Part shown: positions 3 to 13,021 of the stretch, one piece after another
How the letters are laid out: every line of letters starts with the position of its first letter
How positions within the stretch are numbered: position 1 is the first letter of the stretch
From: Atractiella rhizophila
Lineage: Eukaryota
Assembly (NCBI GenBank): GCA_021432655.1
Contig: MU271203.1
Location: forward strand, 122,918 to 142,917
Direction of reading: 5' to 3'
Length of the DNA stretch: 20,000 nucleotides
Notes under the pieces: model-generated
The model's database searches: none
What the model was told of the DNA's origin: nothing
What the model saw: only the letters and a program-made list of their open reading frames with translations
Program-made: the position numbers and the translations under genes

Positions 3-3000
3 ATCCCTATCCCCAAACCTGACATTCCACCAGCTCCACTTTCCGCCAATCCTCTCAATTACGGAAGGCCGAAAATGAAGAAGAACCTCAATAAGAAAAT
101 GCTTTCTCTTACCGTCAACCCTGCCCTCGCCGAAACCCAATCCTGTCCCCCATCACCTGGCATCTTTGCCCTGCTTCCGGATGAGGGAGACGAGGAGGAT
201 GGGGCGGGGAAGGACGAGTTTAAAGCTAAGATGATGTTGAAGGTGAAGGCGGAAGAGATGCGAGATCGACTTTCAGGTAAGAATGGAGGAATGGGAAGGA
301 GGAAATCCATACCTGGTGGAATGAGTTTAGCAACTCATGTTGCTGGGACCGCGCCAATTGACGATCAAGAGGAGGAAGATGAGGAATTCCCGTATCAACA
401 TGGACCGAAGGAGATCTTGAAAGGCCTCTACCTTGGAAGTGAGGGGAATGCGAAAGATGGAGAGATGCTGAGAAGAGAGGGGATCAAGTGGATCCTCAAT
501 GTTGCGGTGGAAGTGGTTGTGCCCTGGGAGGATGGGAACGTGGTTGATGGGATCGAAGGCTGGAACAAGCTGGATGAACAGGTACCCCGTCTAGCAATCG
601 AGAAAGTGGACGGAGACCGCACCCCTCTCAGCTCAGCTCAGCCAACCTTCAAGCTCGCCTTGGACGACCGGCCCCCTATGAGCTCCATCGAACCCTCGTT
701 TGGAGGACTGCCCTTTGGTCGAGACGACGACGACCGACCACCCATGAGCTCGATCGAGCCGTCGTTCGGTGGACTTCCCTTCACGCGAGAAGCAGATGAA
801 CCTGCCCCTCTGAAGAGCTTCCTTCTGCCTTCTTTGGGTGGATTATCATCTGCAGATGAAGACGACGATCGACCACCAATGAGTTCTATTGAACCCACCT
901 TCGCTGGTCTACCATTTGGAAGGGATGAAGATCGTGGACCGAAGAGTTCGTTGGCCCCGTCGTTTGGCGGCCTGCCTTTCAAGAGAGACGATGATGACGA
1001 TGATCGTCCCCCGATGAGTTCGATCGAGCCCACATTCGGAGGATTGCCTTTTGGAAGAGATGAAGACAGAGGACCGAAGAGCTCGCTTGCTCCCTCTTTC
1101 GGGGCTTTGCCGTTCAGGAGAGACGACGATGATCACCCTCCGATGAGTTCCATCGAACCCACTTTTGGAGGATTGCCTTTCGGAAGAGATGAAGATAGAG
1201 GACCAAAGAGCTCGCTCGCTCCTTCCTTCGGGGCGCTTCCATTCAGGAGAGAAGAAGACGACGACAAGCCACCCATGAGTTCGATCGAACCTTCCTTCGG
1301 TGGACTACCATTTAAGAGAGATGAACCTGCGCCGATGAGCTCGATCGAGCCCAGCTTCGGTGCATTACCCTTCAAACGGGATGACGAGGACGGGACTGCC
1401 CCCATGAGTGCCGTCGAGTCGACATTCTTTTCCCTGCCCGTCAACAATCGTCCCTCCATTCCACGATCGGAAAGGGCGCCGGAGCCTATCATGGAAGAAC
1501 CGATGGAGTATACCATCTCGATTTCCCCTCCGCAGGAGCCCGCCGCTTCTCCCCAAGTTTCTCCCAATAGATCGAAGTCAATGTTGATGCGTACTGCCAC
1601 GTCAACTCCAAATCTGAAAGCTTCATTTGAGGAGGAGGAAGATGCGCCTTCTCCTTCGAGGACTAGGAAGTTTACTCTTCCTCTTCCTATCGTAGATAAT
1701 GGACCAAAGGTACTCGACTTGAGATTCGAAGAGATGGGGAGTCGCCCGGCCGTCAATTACCGAAAACTGTTCTGGGGACATGATCAGAAAGATGTTGTTG
1801 ACCAGTTTGAGAAGGCTTTCGAGTTTATTGAAGCTGCACGCAGCAGGGGCGAAGGAGTTTTGGTGCATTGCCAATGCGGTATCTCAAGGTTTGTTGTTGC
1901 TTCCTTAATAGATGGCGCCGAACGTTGATTCTGAATACAGGAGCGGATGCGCTGTCATTCTCTATGTGATGAAGAAGGCATCAGAAGGTCGGATCAAAAA
2001 GATGGGATCAGAATGGGAGGGCGGAGAACTGGTTGAAGTGACGACGGAGTGGAGCTCTGCCTATGACTTTGCCAGAAAGAAGAGTCGACATGTTGGACCA
2101 AACATGAATCTCATTTGGCATTGTCTGGATTACGGAAAGACGCTCAAGAGGCTGGAAAGTGGCAAGGGAGAGGATTCGAACACGGATGACGAAGAGGAAG
2201 AACGACAGATAATGCAACAACGCAGGAAGCAGGAAGAACCTGATGAAGCCGCGTCCTCCGTCTCATCCAAGAACTCCTTCTCGACCAGACTTTATGCTGG
2301 TTCCAATCAACTTCCCGATAACGAGTCCATGTTCTCTCAGGTTTCGACACCAGTTTCGATGAAACCTCCAGTTGTTATTGCACCCATCCAGCCGAAAGCG
2401 AAACGAGCACCGCCGCCGCTGAAACTCAAAAAGGAGACGACGACAACGGTCCTTGCAGTCGGAGATGTTGACGACAAGGAAAGCGTCACCAGTCATGCCT
2501 CGTCGAAGTTAGACACGAAACACCAGTTATCGCCTCTTCCTCCTCACGTCGCTCCACCAATCCCCACCCCCTTCACCGCTCATCCTGCGAAGACGACTTT
2601 TACAAGGCCTATGGCTCCGACGCCTCATACCGCGAGTGCTTTCAAAACCAGCTTCGGCAGCAAGAGCCAAGCTGCCTCTTCGTCCTTTAGCAAGATCTTT
2701 CCATCGTCTGCCTCGATCAAATCTGCTTCTTCTAAAGGTTCCAAGACATCTAAACTGTCCCGTCTGCGGTCGTCTAAGTTTGCCCTGCCTTTCCCTCTGC
2801 CCCCTTCTGTCACTACTCAGGTGGGTGTTCGCCTCTAGACACCGTCTCCGTTTCAAGTGCTGATCTTACTTGATGGTTAGGTGGATACCCCAACTGCGTC
2901 TGCATTCAAGCCTTCGCCAGCTTTGAATGCTCTTAATAACACAGCGCAAGCTACCGGAACATACACGAGAAAGCGAGGTGCTTCTCTTCTGGTATCAACC

Positions 3001-3165
3001 ACTGCGAACATTGCGAGCGCGATTGCGAGCCCTCAGACCCCTGGACCGCCTCCCGCTACTCCCCATGGTAGGAGTAAGTCATTCTTTAGTTCTTTTCTTC
3101 GACGAGGCAGCTTCAGTCAGCACACGCATCCTTCCAATCAGTCCAGCAGCAGTGGACACCGATGA
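3..3165 (+). CDS. Dual-specificity (MAPK) protein phosphatase, Msg5/Pmp1-like, with internal repeat insert; probably 5'-partial. Exons <3-1888, 1941-2820, 2881-3165
   Basis: N-terminal DSP half: GPKEILKGLYLGSEGNA...GIKWILNVAVEV. C-terminal half: YRKLFWGHDQ...FIEAAR...VLVHCQCGISR|SGCAVILYVM (HCxxGxxRS active site joined across GT-AG intron 1889-1940) and AYDFARKKSRHVGPNMNLI. Second intron 2821-2880. The frame is open upstream of ATG 75 to the window edge. NKKMLSLTV resembles a MAPK docking D-motif. Confidence 0.9.
615..1440 (+). repeat. Coding tandem repeat, about 13 units of 60-72 nt, inside the phosphatase
   Basis: Ten well-conserved units ending LPFxR (type A: DDRPPMSSIEP[ST]FGGLPFxR; type B: DEDRGPKSSLAPSFG[GA]LPF[KR]R) plus three degenerate units, read from the translation of ORF 75..1928. 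Confidence 0.95.
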
Positions 3166-3485
3166 TTCTTCGTGCCAGCGACTCTTTCGTTTCTTTTCGC
3201 TACGGATTTCTCTGCTCGGTTTGATCATAAGTAACTTCACAGCCCTGATTGCATCGACACGTACTTTACTTCATCTATTTATTCATTGGAAGCGATGGCT
3301 GAAGCGTGTTGCGGGTTCAACGCGGTGTTGGGTGACTGGACATTTTGGATTGCCTTGAGCTCAAGTGGACATTTCTCCTTTTTCGTGAGTTCACAAGTGC
3401 TTGTATTCTCACATTTTGCAATATGATCGTGTGACAATGTTCGCGATATCCCATTACATTGTAGTTCAACAGAGCAAAGCGGACA

Positions 3486-4789
3486 TTACGTTTTGCGCTT
3501 CTTGGACTTTGGAGGTTCTTCGTCTTCAGAAGCGCCAACCAGATCCTCCATATCCTTTAGCTCGTCAGCATCAACCATCTCCAACTCCTCGTCACCTTCC
3601 TCGTCTTCTTCCTCGTCTTCCTCACTCTCGCTTTCATCCCTACCACGCTTTAATCCTTTCATCTTCCGTTGTTGCTGCTTCTCCAACTCTTCGAACTGCC
3701 GTCCGACATGGATCTGGCCAACTGTATCTCCCATTTCATCGATATCGACATTTTTATTTTGCTTCTTCTTGTCCCCGTCGACAGGTTTCGCTTTCGGAGC
3801 GACGTGCTTCGTAGCTGTCTTCCATACGGCAGGGTCTGCAGACTGAGTTCTGCGAAGGGAGAAGTCGAGGAAAGGACCATGAGGCTCGAGCTGCACTTTT
3901 GGAATCCGAGAGCCTGAACGAAGCAAAACTGTCTTGTACACTCGGAAGTGTACTTTTGGCAGATCGCCTTCTTTGATGGATGAAGACGACGGACCGGCTG
4001 TGGGATCGGAGAGAGAGACGAGAGGTGCAGGTGCTTCTTCACTGGTGGAATCCGTGACACTGCTGACAATGTCGGTTGTGCCGGCCGTTACGCAAATAAC
4101 ATGCTCAACGCCGGAAAGATTGATGTTGTTGGCCATTTGACCGTGAAAAAAGTCGAGTAAAAAAGACTTGAATTGGATGTAAAGGGGGTGAGTATCAAAG
4201 AGATGACCGCTGAACTGAAACAGTGGACGAGACGATGGGGAGGTTTTGATGCCCTTTACAACACCATGCTTTAACCCGAATTTTATAGCTAAGGTAGATG
4301 CGCGCACCTTGAACTCGCTCATCCCAATGGCTTTATCCACGCCTGTTTCCAACATCTCCATCACGTTCCCATCGAAAGTTCTTGCCCATATAAGGTCGTT
4401 TGGACGCTTTTTCGAGTGGAGTCCAACGAGAAACAGCGAAGCATCGTTCTTGTGGGACCAGAATGCTAAGCTTGAGGAATCCTCAAAGGGGTGTATAGCA
4501 TTCTTCTTGTTGAACAGCAAGCAGTCAGGTTTCTTTAGCTGAGCCTGAATCCTCGCGAGTTAGCATATTGCGGTAAATTGAGAGAAAATGCATACCAATT
4601 CTGAGAGTGCCAAGTTGACATTCTGCGATGTCTGGCTGCCCTTCACAAATATCGCAGTCTTAGGGCCCTCTACAACTTGAGGCTCGCGAGCTTTCATCGC
4701 TCGCTTGCTCCGTGCATTCTTTGGCTTTCTACTCACAGCAATCAGCGGCAATAGGGGAAGTATGGGGCAGCTCACACTACCCTTTGCAT
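3486..4789 (-). CDS. RPF2: Ribosome biogenesis protein Rpf2 (Brix domain). Exons 4789-4776, 4728-4596, 4544-4308, 4253-3486
   Basis: Spliced N-terminus MQRVVKPKNARSKRAM; motifs KKNAIHPFED, KNDASLF, HSKKRPNDL, RTFD, LLDFFHG, PKVQLEPHGP, DEMGDTVGQIHVGRQ, RKMKGLKR. Introns 4729-4775, 4545-4595, 4254-4307 are all GT-AG. Confidence 0.95.
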
Positions 4790-8475: not shown

Positions 8476-10248
8476 ATGGCTTCTTCCTCGTCAGAATCAG
8501 ACGCGTCTTTTGTGGCCTCGGACGACGATTTGCCTCAGATGGCTGGCGACACGCGACGCTCAAACCGACGCAGAACGCAGACTGTGAGGGCTCAAGAGGC
8601 AGATGGTGCCAGTACTGAGAGGAAGAAGAGCAAGAAGGGGAAGGGGAAAGAGACATTGCATGTTTGGGAGGAAGAATATCAGAGAAGTTGGGATGTAGTG
8701 CAGGAAGATGAGAGTGGGAGCTTACAGACAAGTGTCGACCAGTGGTTGGCTGGCAATCGACGAAGACGGTGCGAATTTTCTCCTTTCTCTCTACAATTTG
8801 GTTGGGTGATGATGTCCTTGTAATGACGTACTCTGTCTTGAAATAAACTAGAATTTTACGAGACGCGACCGCAGTTCAGAGAGGCATCATTCGCCATCTC
8901 GTTCTTGTCATAGACTTGTCTTTGAGCATGATGGATCGCGACTTGCGACCTACCAGACTCGAGTTGTCAATTCAGTACGCCAAGGAATTCATCAATGAAT
9001 TCTTCGACCAAAATCCCATCTCTCAGCTTGCAATTGTCGGAACTCGAGATGGGCTGGCGGAAAGACTAAGCCCTCTAAGTGGTCAGCGTCGCGTTTCTTT
9101 CATAAACCAGGAGTTTTAGACTAAATTAGGCAACCCAATTGACCATGAAAAGGGCCTTGCCAACAAACGCAAACTTGATCCATCTGGTGAACCTTCCTTA
9201 CAGAATGCCTTGGAAATGGCCAAAGGCCTACTCAGGTATGCATCCGCCTGCGCCTCTACTCCATAAGACTAATTTCTTTCTAGCCATCTTCCTTCTCATG
9301 GCTCGAGAGAAATTGTTGTCATTTTTGGCTCCCTCACTACTTGTGATCCTGGGAACATACACACAACGATCGAATCTCTCGAAAAGTTGAGAATCCGCGT
9401 CTCGATAATTGGACTGGCCGCTGAGTTGCGTATATGTCGAGAAATTAGCGTCAGAACTCATGGTGCGCTTTGCCTTCTTCATGTGTTGCGCAAGAGAAGC
9501 TGAACATGCGGGAACGGAAATAAAGGCTCCTTCGGAGTGGTACTAAACGAGCAGCACTTCCGGGATCTTCTCATGGAATCGGTGCAACCTCCTCCACTGC
9601 CATCTTCTACGATCACCACAACAACACGCTCCTCCCTCCTGTCAGCCCTCAATGCACCTCCTACTCCCGCAGCCCCGAAGCCTGCTCCGCCTTCTACAGC
9701 AGATTTAATACAGATGGGCTTTCCCCTCCTCGATTTCTGCAAATCGTCATCGTTTCCTACCTTATGCACCTGCCATTCTAAGCTTCGGTTGAAGGTATTC
9801 ATCTGCCCTAGATGCAAAGCACAATATTGCGAGATCCCAGTAGATTGCGGGATCTGTGGATTGATGATTGTTTCAAGTCCATTGCTCGCAAGAAGCTATA
9901 AACATTTGGTACCCGTCCTTAACTTCAAAGAGGTCAACCAGTGCGCATTTATTCTAGTCCCACGACCTGTATCTGATCGTCGAACAGTCCAACTTCTCAA
10001 GAACAAGCCGATTCCTTCCCTTCTGCATGCCATGCTTGCTCGCTTCCTTTCTCTGCTCTCAAAATTATCTCAAAGGTTGCTTCGAATGAGGGGGCAAACT
10101 CGAATCCAAATACAAAGAGCGGGAGTGGATTAAGTCCGACTGGGAGATATGAATGTCCGAATTGTCATAATCACTTCTGTCTTGAGTGCGAGCTGATGAT
10201 TCACGATTCATTGGGGATGTGTGTTGGATGCACAACTGGAGTACGATG
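8476..10248 (+). CDS. SSL1: TFIIH core subunit Ssl1/p44. Exons 8476-8768, 8852-9081, 9130-9235, 9284-9462, 9526-9940, 9988-10248
   Basis: WEEEYQRSWDVVQEDESGSL, QRGIIRHLVLVIDLS, DLRPTR, EFFDQNPISQL, GEPSLQNALEMA, HGSREI, SLTTCDPGNI (vWA domain); MGFP; CPRC...C..C..L..SP.LARSY.HL zinc finger; C-terminal CHAC...YECPNCHNHFCLEC...IHDSLGMCVGC. Confidence 0.96.
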
Positions 10249-11228: not shown

Positions 11229-11683
11229 GGTCTTTCTCCTGCGCTCAGCAGACAAGGGCTCGCTCCGTCAACTTTTGAGTGTGCGTTTTGGCGAGTTTTT
11301 CAATGGCCGAGCTGAAAGGTTTACTCAAGTTTCTTCTGCCATTCAAATTGATTCAACCATGAATATCGCCAAGTGGGGGGACTTGGTGGGGAGGTTTACT
11401 GTTTGTGAGCAATTGTCTCCCCGAATAGGACTAATCTATCGGGTAGTCGTCCCTGTTCTAACATTTTTTTGTTGTTCCCAACAATTGCCAAGTTGCTAAG
11501 TTTCCCGTTTACAGTCATTTGAGCTTTGGGATATCTTAGTTATCACCTACTGCAATTTCTGTAGTTCTGGAGTTAACTGTCCTGGAAAGGCTGAAGAGAA
11601 CTTGTCTGTCTCCTGTAAGCGCCTAAGTTCACGTCCACCCTTCTCACCCATTCTCCTGCGTAGGTCTAAATAAAATCGTTAGC

Positions 11684-13021
11684 ATGTCGATGGTTTTTAA
11701 TGCTGCCGTTTTTGCTGGAGGGATAGCGGTAGGAGCAGCGAGTACAGTCTTGTTTTCGACGAGGAGAGAGAAGGAAATTGCTCCTCCAGCCCCTCCTCCA
11801 GTGCCTTCTCCGGCGGTAGCTCCATTACCTAGCAGGGCCTCCCCTGCGCAAACCAGCGCGTTTGAAGCTCTCACTACTTTTGGTGGTAATCCAGGTACTT
11901 TTCTCATTGACTTGGAGGTGGCACTGCTCCAACTGCTTCGTCTAGGGCCGTTCCACGATCTCTTTGTCCGTCAAGCTTACATTACCTCGTACGACCGAGT
12001 ACATCGACATCCAGCTTGGACGGCAGAGCATTTGACAGCTTCCTCGCTTCTCAGGACACCTGCCGTCTCCTCACCGGAGAATGTCTCTTCTTCCAGCGCC
12101 GCTGGAGACTTAATCGTTGGTACTGGTACACAACGTGCTGGAAGCCGTGAATCTAGTTTTTTTCGAGAGGATCCAGCTGTACCTGAGTTGTTCAGGGCAA
12201 AGTTGGCAGATTATGCCAAAAGTGGATATGATAGAGGACATATGGTACGCTCTCTGTCTTCGTTCTTTCAGGTCTTAAAAATTTTCTGATTTTCTGTGAG
12301 GTGTTTAGGTGCCTGCTGCAGACGCGAAACGCTCACAATCAGCAATGGACGAAACGTTTCTTCTCACCAACATCGCTCCTCAAGTTGGGGATGGGTTCAA
12401 TCGCCACTACTGGGCTTGGGTGGAAGATTTCTGTCGTCGCCTGACGGGCAAGTTCTCGGACGTCTACGTCTTCACCATCCCTCTCTATCTCCCGCGCCGG
12501 GATCCAGACGGAAAGTTTCGGGTGACATACGAGGTGATAGCGAATTCGTCTACCATGCCTCCCACGCCAAATGTCAGTGTACCGACCCACTTTGCGAAAG
12601 TCATTCTAGCAAATACTCCCTCAGTTGCTGGGGGAAAGGGGGGCGTTGCTCAAGTTGGACTCGGGTTAGCCAGCATTGGAGCTTTCGTGTTGCCTAACCA
12701 GCCTATTCCGGATCAGACACCGTTGAGGGCGTTTGAGGTGCCGGGTTCGTGTTTTTGCTGTCTCGATTTCCAGTTGATTAATCGTGAGAACGGATGACTA
12801 GTTGAAGCCGTAGAGAAAGCATCTGGTGTGCAGTTACCTTCTTCTGCTCGATAACTCCTAATCATTTTCTTGGGACGCAGGCTTGACTTTGTTTTCGCCC
12901 CAAGTGAAAGCCCAAGCGAAAAAGCTTTTGCGACACCACAGAATGCAACGTCGTTGTGCGACACTTCGACGATGCTGCTAAAAAGAACGATAGAAAGTCA
13001 TTACCTCCGCCTTCACCATGA
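11684..13021 (+). CDS. NUC1: Mitochondrial nuclease Nuc1/endonuclease G with an apparent +1 frameshift near 12925. Exons 11684-11894, 11946-12244, 12309-12744, 12802-12825, 12881-13021
   Basis: YDRVHRHPAWTAEHLT, FREDP..P..FRAKLADYAKSGYDRGHM|VPAAD (DRGH motif), MDETFLLTNIAPQVGDGFNRHYWA..EDFCR, VPTHFAKV, AFVLPN, VEKAS|GLTLF. Confidence 0.95.

Follow-up and report, generated by a model that had tools for sequence, protein, structure and literature searches.

A 20,000-nucleotide (nt) stretch of contig MU271203.1 from Atractiella rhizophila (assembly GCA_021432655.1, positions 122,918 to 142,917 of the forward strand; the whole stretch is called the window below, and all coordinates are window positions) begins within a gene for a predicted mitogen-activated protein kinase (MAPK) phosphatase. 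Its catalytic domain is interrupted by a tandem array of a conserved peptide unit of 20–24 amino acids (aa). We favour reading this array as a lineage-specific multivalent array of short linear motifs in the variable loop of an Msg5/Rok1-type MAPK phosphatase, with a probability of roughly 55%. The enzyme family and its split domain were already known; the array was absent from every collection and paper searched.

A regular-expression scan of the translation identified 11 units, 10 well formed and one degenerate (PMSAVESTFFSLPV), with cores starting at nt 675, 741, 876, 939, 1011, 1074, 1140, 1203, 1272, 1332 and 1401; a further degenerate unit, PLKSFLLPSLGGLSS, was found from nt 807. The degenerate units span 807–854 and 1401–1442, and a candidate remnant, AQPTFKLAL, lies at about 640–665, within 615–674, bringing the count to 12–13 when this possible remnant is included. 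The original prediction of about 13 units was thus near in number, but only 10 are well formed and the other two or three are degenerate. The array and its most regular part are as follows.

675..1442, plus strand (frame 3): tandem array of 10 well-formed and 2 degenerate units with acidic spacers, from the pattern scan of the translation and Tandem Repeats Finder
855..1250, plus strand: three A+B double units (43–45 aa per double unit), where the array is at its most regular, from the Tandem Repeats Finder period of 129 nt

The units share the overall pattern P[MK]SS[IL][EA]P[ST]F[GA][GA]LPFxR followed by an acidic tract, and fall into two types: type A (seven units), PMSSIEP[ST]F[GA][GA]LPF[GTK]R, and type B (three units), PKSSLAPSFG[GA]LPF[KR]R. 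After each core come 3–6 Asp/Glu residues and usually R-P or R-G. Nine of the 16 core positions (P1, S3, S4, P7, F9, L12, P13, F14 and R16) are fixed in all 10 well-formed units. Tandem Repeats Finder reported a period of 129 nt with 3.3 copies over 854–1291 (77% matches, score 435) and a period of 66 nt with 1.9 copies over 663–790; given the 129-nt period, the middle of the array is a higher-order repeat in which types A and B alternate. The most alike pairs of cores are 1011/1140 and 1074/1203, with 90% and 83% nucleotide identity. A degenerate DNA pattern for the type-A core, MSSIEPxFGxLPF, matched six times in the window, always within the array, and had no match in 200 dinucleotide-preserving shuffles; a six-frame scan of the whole window did not find the motif outside the array. 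The array is real, and it is flanked as originally proposed, by GLYLGSE...ILNVAVE before it and by WGHDQ...HCQCGISR, followed across a splice by S, after it.

The gene structure was derived from open frames and from Logan contigs of two sequencing runs, X3 (a root metatranscriptome) and X1. Because both introns are spliced out in them, these contigs derive from RNA.

3..1888, plus strand: exon 1 of the phosphatase gene, with the frame open from base 3 and the 5' end cut by the window edge
1889..1940, plus strand: intron 1, 52 nt, GT..AG, joint present in contigs of X3 and X1, splitting the codon of the active-site Arg
1941..2820, plus strand: exon 2, encoding the remaining catalytic domain (SGCAVILYVMKK...PNMNLIWHCLDY) and a Ser/Pro-rich tail, from the spliced translation
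2821..2880, plus strand: intron 2, 60 nt, GT..AG, joint 2818>2879 (cut +2) in X3 and X1
2881..3165, plus strand: exon 3 up to the stop codon, open frame, with RNA contigs reaching 3330 and 3577

The plus-strand frame from base 3 (3..1928) is open for 641 codons. The 5' end of the gene lies outside the window, as shown by a frame already open at base 3 and by an X3 RNA contig (record 7) that extends beyond the window start. The end of exon 1 is fixed by the GT..AG joint 1886>1939 (cut +2), found in both runs, and exon 2 is covered by RNA contigs over 1939–2818; a Pfam scan of the exon 2 piece alone, at E up to 1, returned no family, DSPc included. About 1016 residues of the protein are encoded within the window, and the translation reads, in order, an N-terminal regulatory region, FPYQHGPKEILKGLYLGSE...ILNVAVEVVVPW, the long insert, and VNYRKLFWGHDQ...VLVHCQCGISR.

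RNA contigs run colinear with the genome over 432–663, 443–694, 1011–1381, 1229–1828 and 1377–1736, with thin coverage from X1 only at 721–840. Where covered, the array contains no joint and is skipped by no X3 or X1 contig, so that the covered parts, which make up most of the array, are present in spliced RNA, and splicing out of these parts, which would have undone the original prediction, is not seen. The contigs are 95–99% identical to the window, and the length of the array is unchanged between them and the window in the covered parts. Outside the array, an in-frame 3-nt insertion at 1688/1689 adds one residue in the X3 and X1 contigs relative to the window.

Two alternative gene models were considered and rejected. 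A small in-frame intron (GT at 582, AG at 636–637) is incompatible with the colinear contigs over 432–663 and 443–694. Minus-strand open frames over the array at 638–1132, 909–1304 and 1133–1756 (164, 131 and 207 aa) were rejected as genes because both confirmed introns are GT..AG on the plus strand; these frames are a by-product of the codon composition of the repeat.

Divergence between the units was measured by the Nei–Gojobori method on the 16-codon cores, as the proportions of synonymous (pS) and nonsynonymous (pN) differences.

All 11 units pooled: pS 0.80, pN 0.17, pN/pS 0.215
Seven type-A units: pS 0.82, pN 0.08, pN/pS 0.10
Three type-B units: pS 0.75, pN 0.066, pN/pS 0.09

Even the closest pair of units, 1011/1140, has a pS of 0.44, with a pN of 0.00. 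Among pairs of identical residues, the same codon was used in 222 of 571 (0.389), compared with 0.338 expected if codons were drawn at random according to the usage of the gene itself. At position 3 of the core, Ser is encoded by AGC in five units and AGT in five, always AGY, while at position 4 it is encoded by TCG in seven, TCC in two and TCT in one, always TCN, a pattern that points to descent of the units from a common ancestral unit. The differences between strains listed inside the array are all synonymous (4 of 4), as are 29 of the 33 listed across the coding sequence; a further 37 differences lie beyond those listed. Synonymous sites between units are near-randomised and close to saturation, and the units are duplicates of long standing whose peptide is under strong purifying selection. 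Because the synonymous sites are near-randomised while the residues are kept, recent slippage and gene conversion are ruled out and selection on the peptide is demonstrated. The original prediction had made both of these points, that codons vary while residues are kept and that selection acts on the peptide in place of recent slippage, and the Ser codons, the between-unit pN/pS of about 0.1 and the low codon sharing uphold them.

These data also bear on the most sceptical view of the array, that a minisatellite without function has expanded in a loop permissive enough to tolerate it. Loop length does vary among homologues (24–87 aa for the first segment, see below), and relatives carrying the array were not found. 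However, recent slippage or gene conversion would leave similar codons in the units and neutral drift would wear down the peptide, whereas codon sharing between units is 0.389 against 0.338 and pN/pS is about 0.1. We consider this view disfavoured and very improbable.

The position of the array within the phosphatase fold was examined using an AlphaFold2 model built from the protein aligned with 29 homologues, in which the helices that exon 2 encodes are missing.

390..527, plus strand: N-terminal half of the phosphatase fold (FPYQHGPKEILKGLYLGSE...ILNVAVEVVVPW), from the model and conserved columns
528..1748, plus strand: whole insert between the halves of the catalytic domain, from anchor distances and the model
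1590..1625, plus strand: family-wide conserved island in the insert (RTATSTPNLKASF), including a Thr-Pro, from near-invariant columns
1749..1888, plus strand: C-terminal half as far as the P-loop, with WGHDQ (Asp at 1782–1784) and HCQCGISR (from 1866)

In the N-terminal half, strands are predicted at residues 136–139, 142–146 and 161–166, with a predicted local distance difference test score (pLDDT) of 90–94 over residues 130–170; most of residues 580–629 have a pLDDT of 88–97. In the alignment, columns P130–P174 are invariant or near-invariant, W591, H593, C623 and R629 are invariant, D594 is present in at least 90% of sequences, and H622 and G626 are near-invariant. The active-site signature HCxxGxxR(S/T) is present as HCQCGISR followed by S, read over the RNA-confirmed splice, and the general-acid Asp, expected about 30 residues before the catalytic Cys, is found there (WGHD to HC, 31 aa). 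Pfam DSPc (PF00782) matched residues 593–629 with 41.4 bits (cut-off 33.5, E 1.5e-10), covering only positions 50–86 of the 133 in the profile; the match is partial because the insert and intron 1 split the domain. A Foldseek-independent structure search of 48,161 PDB representatives ranked human MKP-2 first (3ezz_A, Z 11.6, root-mean-square deviation 1.9 Å, 93 aligned residues, 36% identity), and the further matches were other dual-specificity phosphatases, including yeast SDP-1 (2j16_A, Z 8.0). Model residues 132..629 aligned to 97 consecutive residues of 3ezz_A (chain 193..289). Since both halves match a single unbroken stretch of a canonical domain, the model indicates that they fold as one dual-specificity phosphatase domain from which the insert emerges as a loop. 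The DSPc match, the model and the MKP-2 match thus bear out the claim that the array lies inside this catalytic domain, and the proposed check by structure prediction was likewise favourable, with the halves predicted to fold together around the insert at a pLDDT of about 90. A smaller second insertion lies after the P-loop helix at 1975–2060 (ASEGRIKKMGSEWEGGELVEVTTEWSSAYDF), where homologues also carry extra residues (REAARALEEG...).

The insert measures 415 aa from PW to WGHD (356 + 59), or 446 aa from PW to HC. Its pLDDT is mostly 40–55, and its sole predicted secondary structure is a short helix at residues 185–189. A phmmer search over 1.84 billion representative proteins gave 359 matches at E up to 1e-3, the best scoring 131 bits; with so low a best score, the window protein and its close relatives are absent from that library. 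Among the best 150 of the 359 matches, the closest homologue is only 49% identical over the matched stretches, and the best-matching stretch always lies in the phosphatase halves. The closest homologues have the same split-domain order, with LNVAKEV.CPW, a variable stretch, the island RP..(V/I)RPTASTPNL..F, a second variable stretch, and GRPAL.Y.KLPWGHDE.D...LVHCQCGVSRS. In the 97 of 151 proteins that could be parsed, the distance from the NV strand to HC ranges upward from 44 aa, and it is about 120–260 aa in most of the best-scoring homologues, in line with the earlier statement that the family tolerates inserts at this position; a split domain is normal in the closest homologues.

Segment lengths could be taken from the 21 of 29 homologues in which all anchors were located. 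The segment from PW to the island is 356 aa in the window protein versus 24–87 aa (median 62) in the homologues, whereas that from the island to WGHD is 59 aa versus 42–108 aa (median 69). From these lengths, the array appears as an expansion of the first variable stretch only. The insert of about 400 aa originally described must therefore be divided: about 130 aa of it, including the TASTPNL island, is common to homologues, and the array adds about 280–290 aa.

The island itself, R.TASTPNL..F, was located by a motif search in 21 of 29 homologues, and its near-invariant columns are R530, S534, T535, P536, N537 and L538; we know of no description of it. Given its Thr-Pro, the island may be a site of MAPK feedback phosphorylation or docking. 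A K-F-x-L-P-x-P motif occurs twice in the protein, as RKFTLPLPI in the insert (1668–1706) and SKFALPFPLPP near the C-terminus (2775–2810), and several homologues have C-terminal tails with a similar F.LP.PP motif.

The array was then sought in other proteins. Neither FG[GA]LPF nor GLPF was present in the 150 best homologues and one extra protein; SS[IL]AP occurred once each in 3 of these 151, which we take as chance, and a count of repeated words in the inserts of the other homologues revealed no comparable array. A word-indexed protein search with residues 205–485 as the query gave no match among 8000 scored candidates of near length (345–1101 aa) and none among 7666 longer proteins; among shorter proteins there was one marginal match (E 9.6e-3, 27% identity), to a different repeat. 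The ESM Atlas contained no usable match to the array, and PDB sequences gave none at E up to 10. In JGI metagenome contigs, 401 pattern matches were obtained, none of which was confirmed by tblastn, and the degenerate DNA pattern gave no match. Searches of the literature with the motif strings returned only an unrelated paper on plant cyclic peptides, and keyword searches found no description of such a repeat among the papers listed. That no such ordered array was known, as originally stated, thus agrees with these protein, metagenome, PDB and literature collections, which evidently lack close relatives of the source organism. By these sequence comparisons the array appears to be a lineage-specific addition, being absent from every homologue seen.

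The 281 residues of the array include 53 acidic and 30 basic residues and 24 Phe, with a net charge of about −23 and a composition of 16% Pro, 13% Ser, 12.5% Asp, 9% Gly and 8.5% Phe. AlphaFold on the array alone gave no secondary structure (mean pLDDT 44.8, predicted template modelling score 0.12; a single sequence and hence weak evidence). In the whole-protein model, residues 190–560 also lack secondary structure, with a pLDDT of 40–55 overall and 40–50 in the array region. The array is therefore predicted to be disordered. A fold such as a β-solenoid repeat domain is instead hinted at by a Pfam match to RDM3_C (PF23348, "RDM3 beta-solenoid"; E 3.7e-4, array residues 101–219), but its 21.2 bits fall below the curated cut-off of 35. 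AlphaFold shows no strands either alone or in the whole protein, and Pro, Gly and acidic runs abound in the sequence, so we regard a folded array as improbable.

The same composition, with 24 Phe regularly spaced among 53 acidic and 30 basic residues, and the predicted disorder would suit an array of stickers and spacers, in which Phe, Leu and Arg stickers and acidic spacers drive self-association or condensates and raise the local concentration without a one-to-one partner. Such regions usually tolerate drift around the stickers, whereas here Pro, Ser and Gly are fixed too (9 of 16 positions invariant), for which reason a stereospecific binding site fits better; the net charge of about −23 also disfavours self-association. 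This alternative is unlikely, if somewhat less so than a folded domain.

A resemblance to FxFG/PSFG nucleoporin repeats is provided by P[ST]FG, present in 9 of the 10 well-formed units at a regular spacing of about 22 aa between charged spacers, and such an array could bind nuclear transport receptors or aid crossing of, or docking at, the nuclear pore. However, a Pfam scan of the array at E up to 10 listed no nucleoporin-FG family (HMMER filters drop most weak matches), and the conserved SS, LPF and R reach far beyond the FG pair, for which FG repeats have no need. We rate a pore-related role as low as a folded array.

Docking of the substrate kinase was considered in the light of the N-terminal region, in which two stretches resemble MAPK-docking D-motifs.

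75..116, plus strand: basic-then-LxL stretch MKKNLNKKMLSLTV, D-motif-like, read from the translation
297..329, plus strand: second D-motif-like stretch, RRKSIPGGMSL, read from the translation

Using the D-motif consensus of PMC6479966, both stretches, as putative D-motifs, fit by eye the pattern of two or three Lys/Arg, a short spacer and hydrophobic-x-hydrophobic, the first through KKMLSL at 93–110. Homologues share the first element (R..KNKKQLSLVVP), and the second matches the family consensus M.RRTS.PRL.L. In a MAPK phosphatase, the unit ends LPF[KR]R (hydrophobic-x-hydrophobic, then basic residues), found in the three type-B units and resembling reverse D-motifs, could serve as multiple weak docking sites of the reverse type, by which the substrate MAP kinase would be bound in addition to those N-terminal motifs. 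The Asp/Glu runs directly after each motif should, however, fit poorly with the docking groove of MAP kinases, which is itself acidic, and of the seven type-A units four end in LPFGR and one in LPFTR, with a single basic residue. The odds of this function are about one in ten by our estimate, between those of a sticker-and-spacer region and those of a pore-related role.

Several known systems come close to the window protein and its array. Msg5-type phosphatases (Saccharomyces cerevisiae Msg5, Ustilago maydis Rok1, Schizosaccharomyces pombe Pmp1) likewise have HCxxGxxR, a catalytic Asp upstream of it and, near the N-terminus, basic/hydrophobic stretches resembling D-motifs; the available text of PMC6479966 mentions no repeat array in them. 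The same text describes a second Cys two residues after the catalytic Cys in the Saccharomycotina enzymes and Rok1, and this regulatory HCxC is present in the window protein as HCQC. It also describes U. maydis Rok1 as the longest family member (1069 aa) with a "notably short DSPc", which the half-domain Pfam match of the window protein parallels. By analogy, a split rather than truncated domain may explain the short DSPc of Rok1. Human MKP-2/DUSP4 (3ezz) and yeast SDP-1 (2j16) have the same fold with a short loop in place of the approximately 415 aa of the window protein. The "variable insert" of VHR-type phosphatases occupies the same topological position, from the LN(V/A)A strand to the strand before the general-acid Asp, but is only about 15–20 aa and folded on the domain, whereas the window loop is predicted to be disordered. 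The VHR insert lines the substrate groove. FG nucleoporins, the DPF motifs of Eps15 and the GW repeats of GW182/SPT5L similarly present many short aromatic motifs on flexible spacers in a disordered region, a working analogy; the core of the window array is much longer (16 aa) and lies inside a catalytic domain, and the sole profile match of the array is the sub-threshold one to RDM3_C. The consensus motifs of the AP-2 β-appendage, PP2A-B56 (LxxIxE), calcineurin (PxIxIT), 14-3-3, SxIP and BRCT (pSxxF), compared with the units by eye, gave no or a purely formal fit and were set aside.

In the proposed pathway, a disordered loop between the LNVA.EV..PW strand and WGHD is the normal state of the family; a single unit of 20–24 aa would have been copied first, and then the A+B double unit, enlarging the first part of that loop. 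The array would stay unfolded and present some ten short, equivalent motifs for a single partner protein to bind; the partner would be bound by avidity and either held beside the active site or used to tether the phosphatase at the partner's location. Tethering, or control of access to the active site, would be its mode of action; binding and any effect on MAPK dephosphorylation are inferred. Phospho-regulated binding at the invariant Ser-Ser is one candidate mode, at low odds; in type A the first Ser, with Glu at +3, lies in a CK2-like context.

Several observations weigh against this reading. The partner is hypothetical, and a conserved core of 16 residues is long for a classical short linear motif. 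No relative carrying the array was found in which its conservation across species would show. For the array, the prediction of disorder comes from a single sequence and is weak evidence, and the sub-threshold RDM3_C match is a possible hint of a fold. RNA coverage is absent over 841–960 in both X3 and X1, where the units at 876 and 939 are in frame and well formed, and at 95–99% identity the RNA contigs come from related strains, not from the same isolate.

A more specific possibility, to which we give about one chance in four, is a multivalent docking platform formed by about ten copies of a new motif, SS[IL]xP[ST]FGxLPFxR with its acidic run, on a loop bordering the substrate groove. The partner caught beside the active site could be a transport receptor, a regulator or the kinase that is the substrate.

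In the remainder of the window, the 3' end of the phosphatase transcript adjoins a convergent gene. An RNA contig of the phosphatase gene runs on past the stop codon, over 3166–3577, and overlaps the 3' end of the minus-strand gene at 3486–4559, which encodes a Brix-domain protein (Pfam E 6.8e-30); the contig represents either one transcript or two overlapping ones. Further along lie ordinary housekeeping neighbours, a fragment of an Ssl1-like TFIIH subunit (9504–10133, plus strand, E 1.1e-6) and a DNA/RNA non-specific endonuclease over two open frames (11627–12797, plus strand, E 2.7e-12 and 4.6e-28), presumably split by an intron. Sequence near-identical to window positions 300–2300 was present in runs filed under eleven organism codes and in root metatranscriptomes, which suggests that the source fungus is widespread in samples of other organisms, as an associate or a contaminant.

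In fungi, how strong mating, cell-wall and stress signalling is and how long it lasts depend on MAPK phosphatases, whose post-translational regulation is largely open. Rok1, the putative orthologue in the smut U. maydis, governs both filament formation and virulence, and according to PMC6918084 it must be regulated by unknown post-translational mechanisms. The array described here offers a concrete handle on such regulation, and shows clearly how synonymous divergence close to saturation among units reveals selection on a repeat predicted to be disordered. If the docking-platform view is true, avidity would take over from the usual lone N-terminal docking motif in determining the choice of substrate or the localisation, and the array would represent a new class of docking motif and a new mode of MAPK phosphatase regulation.

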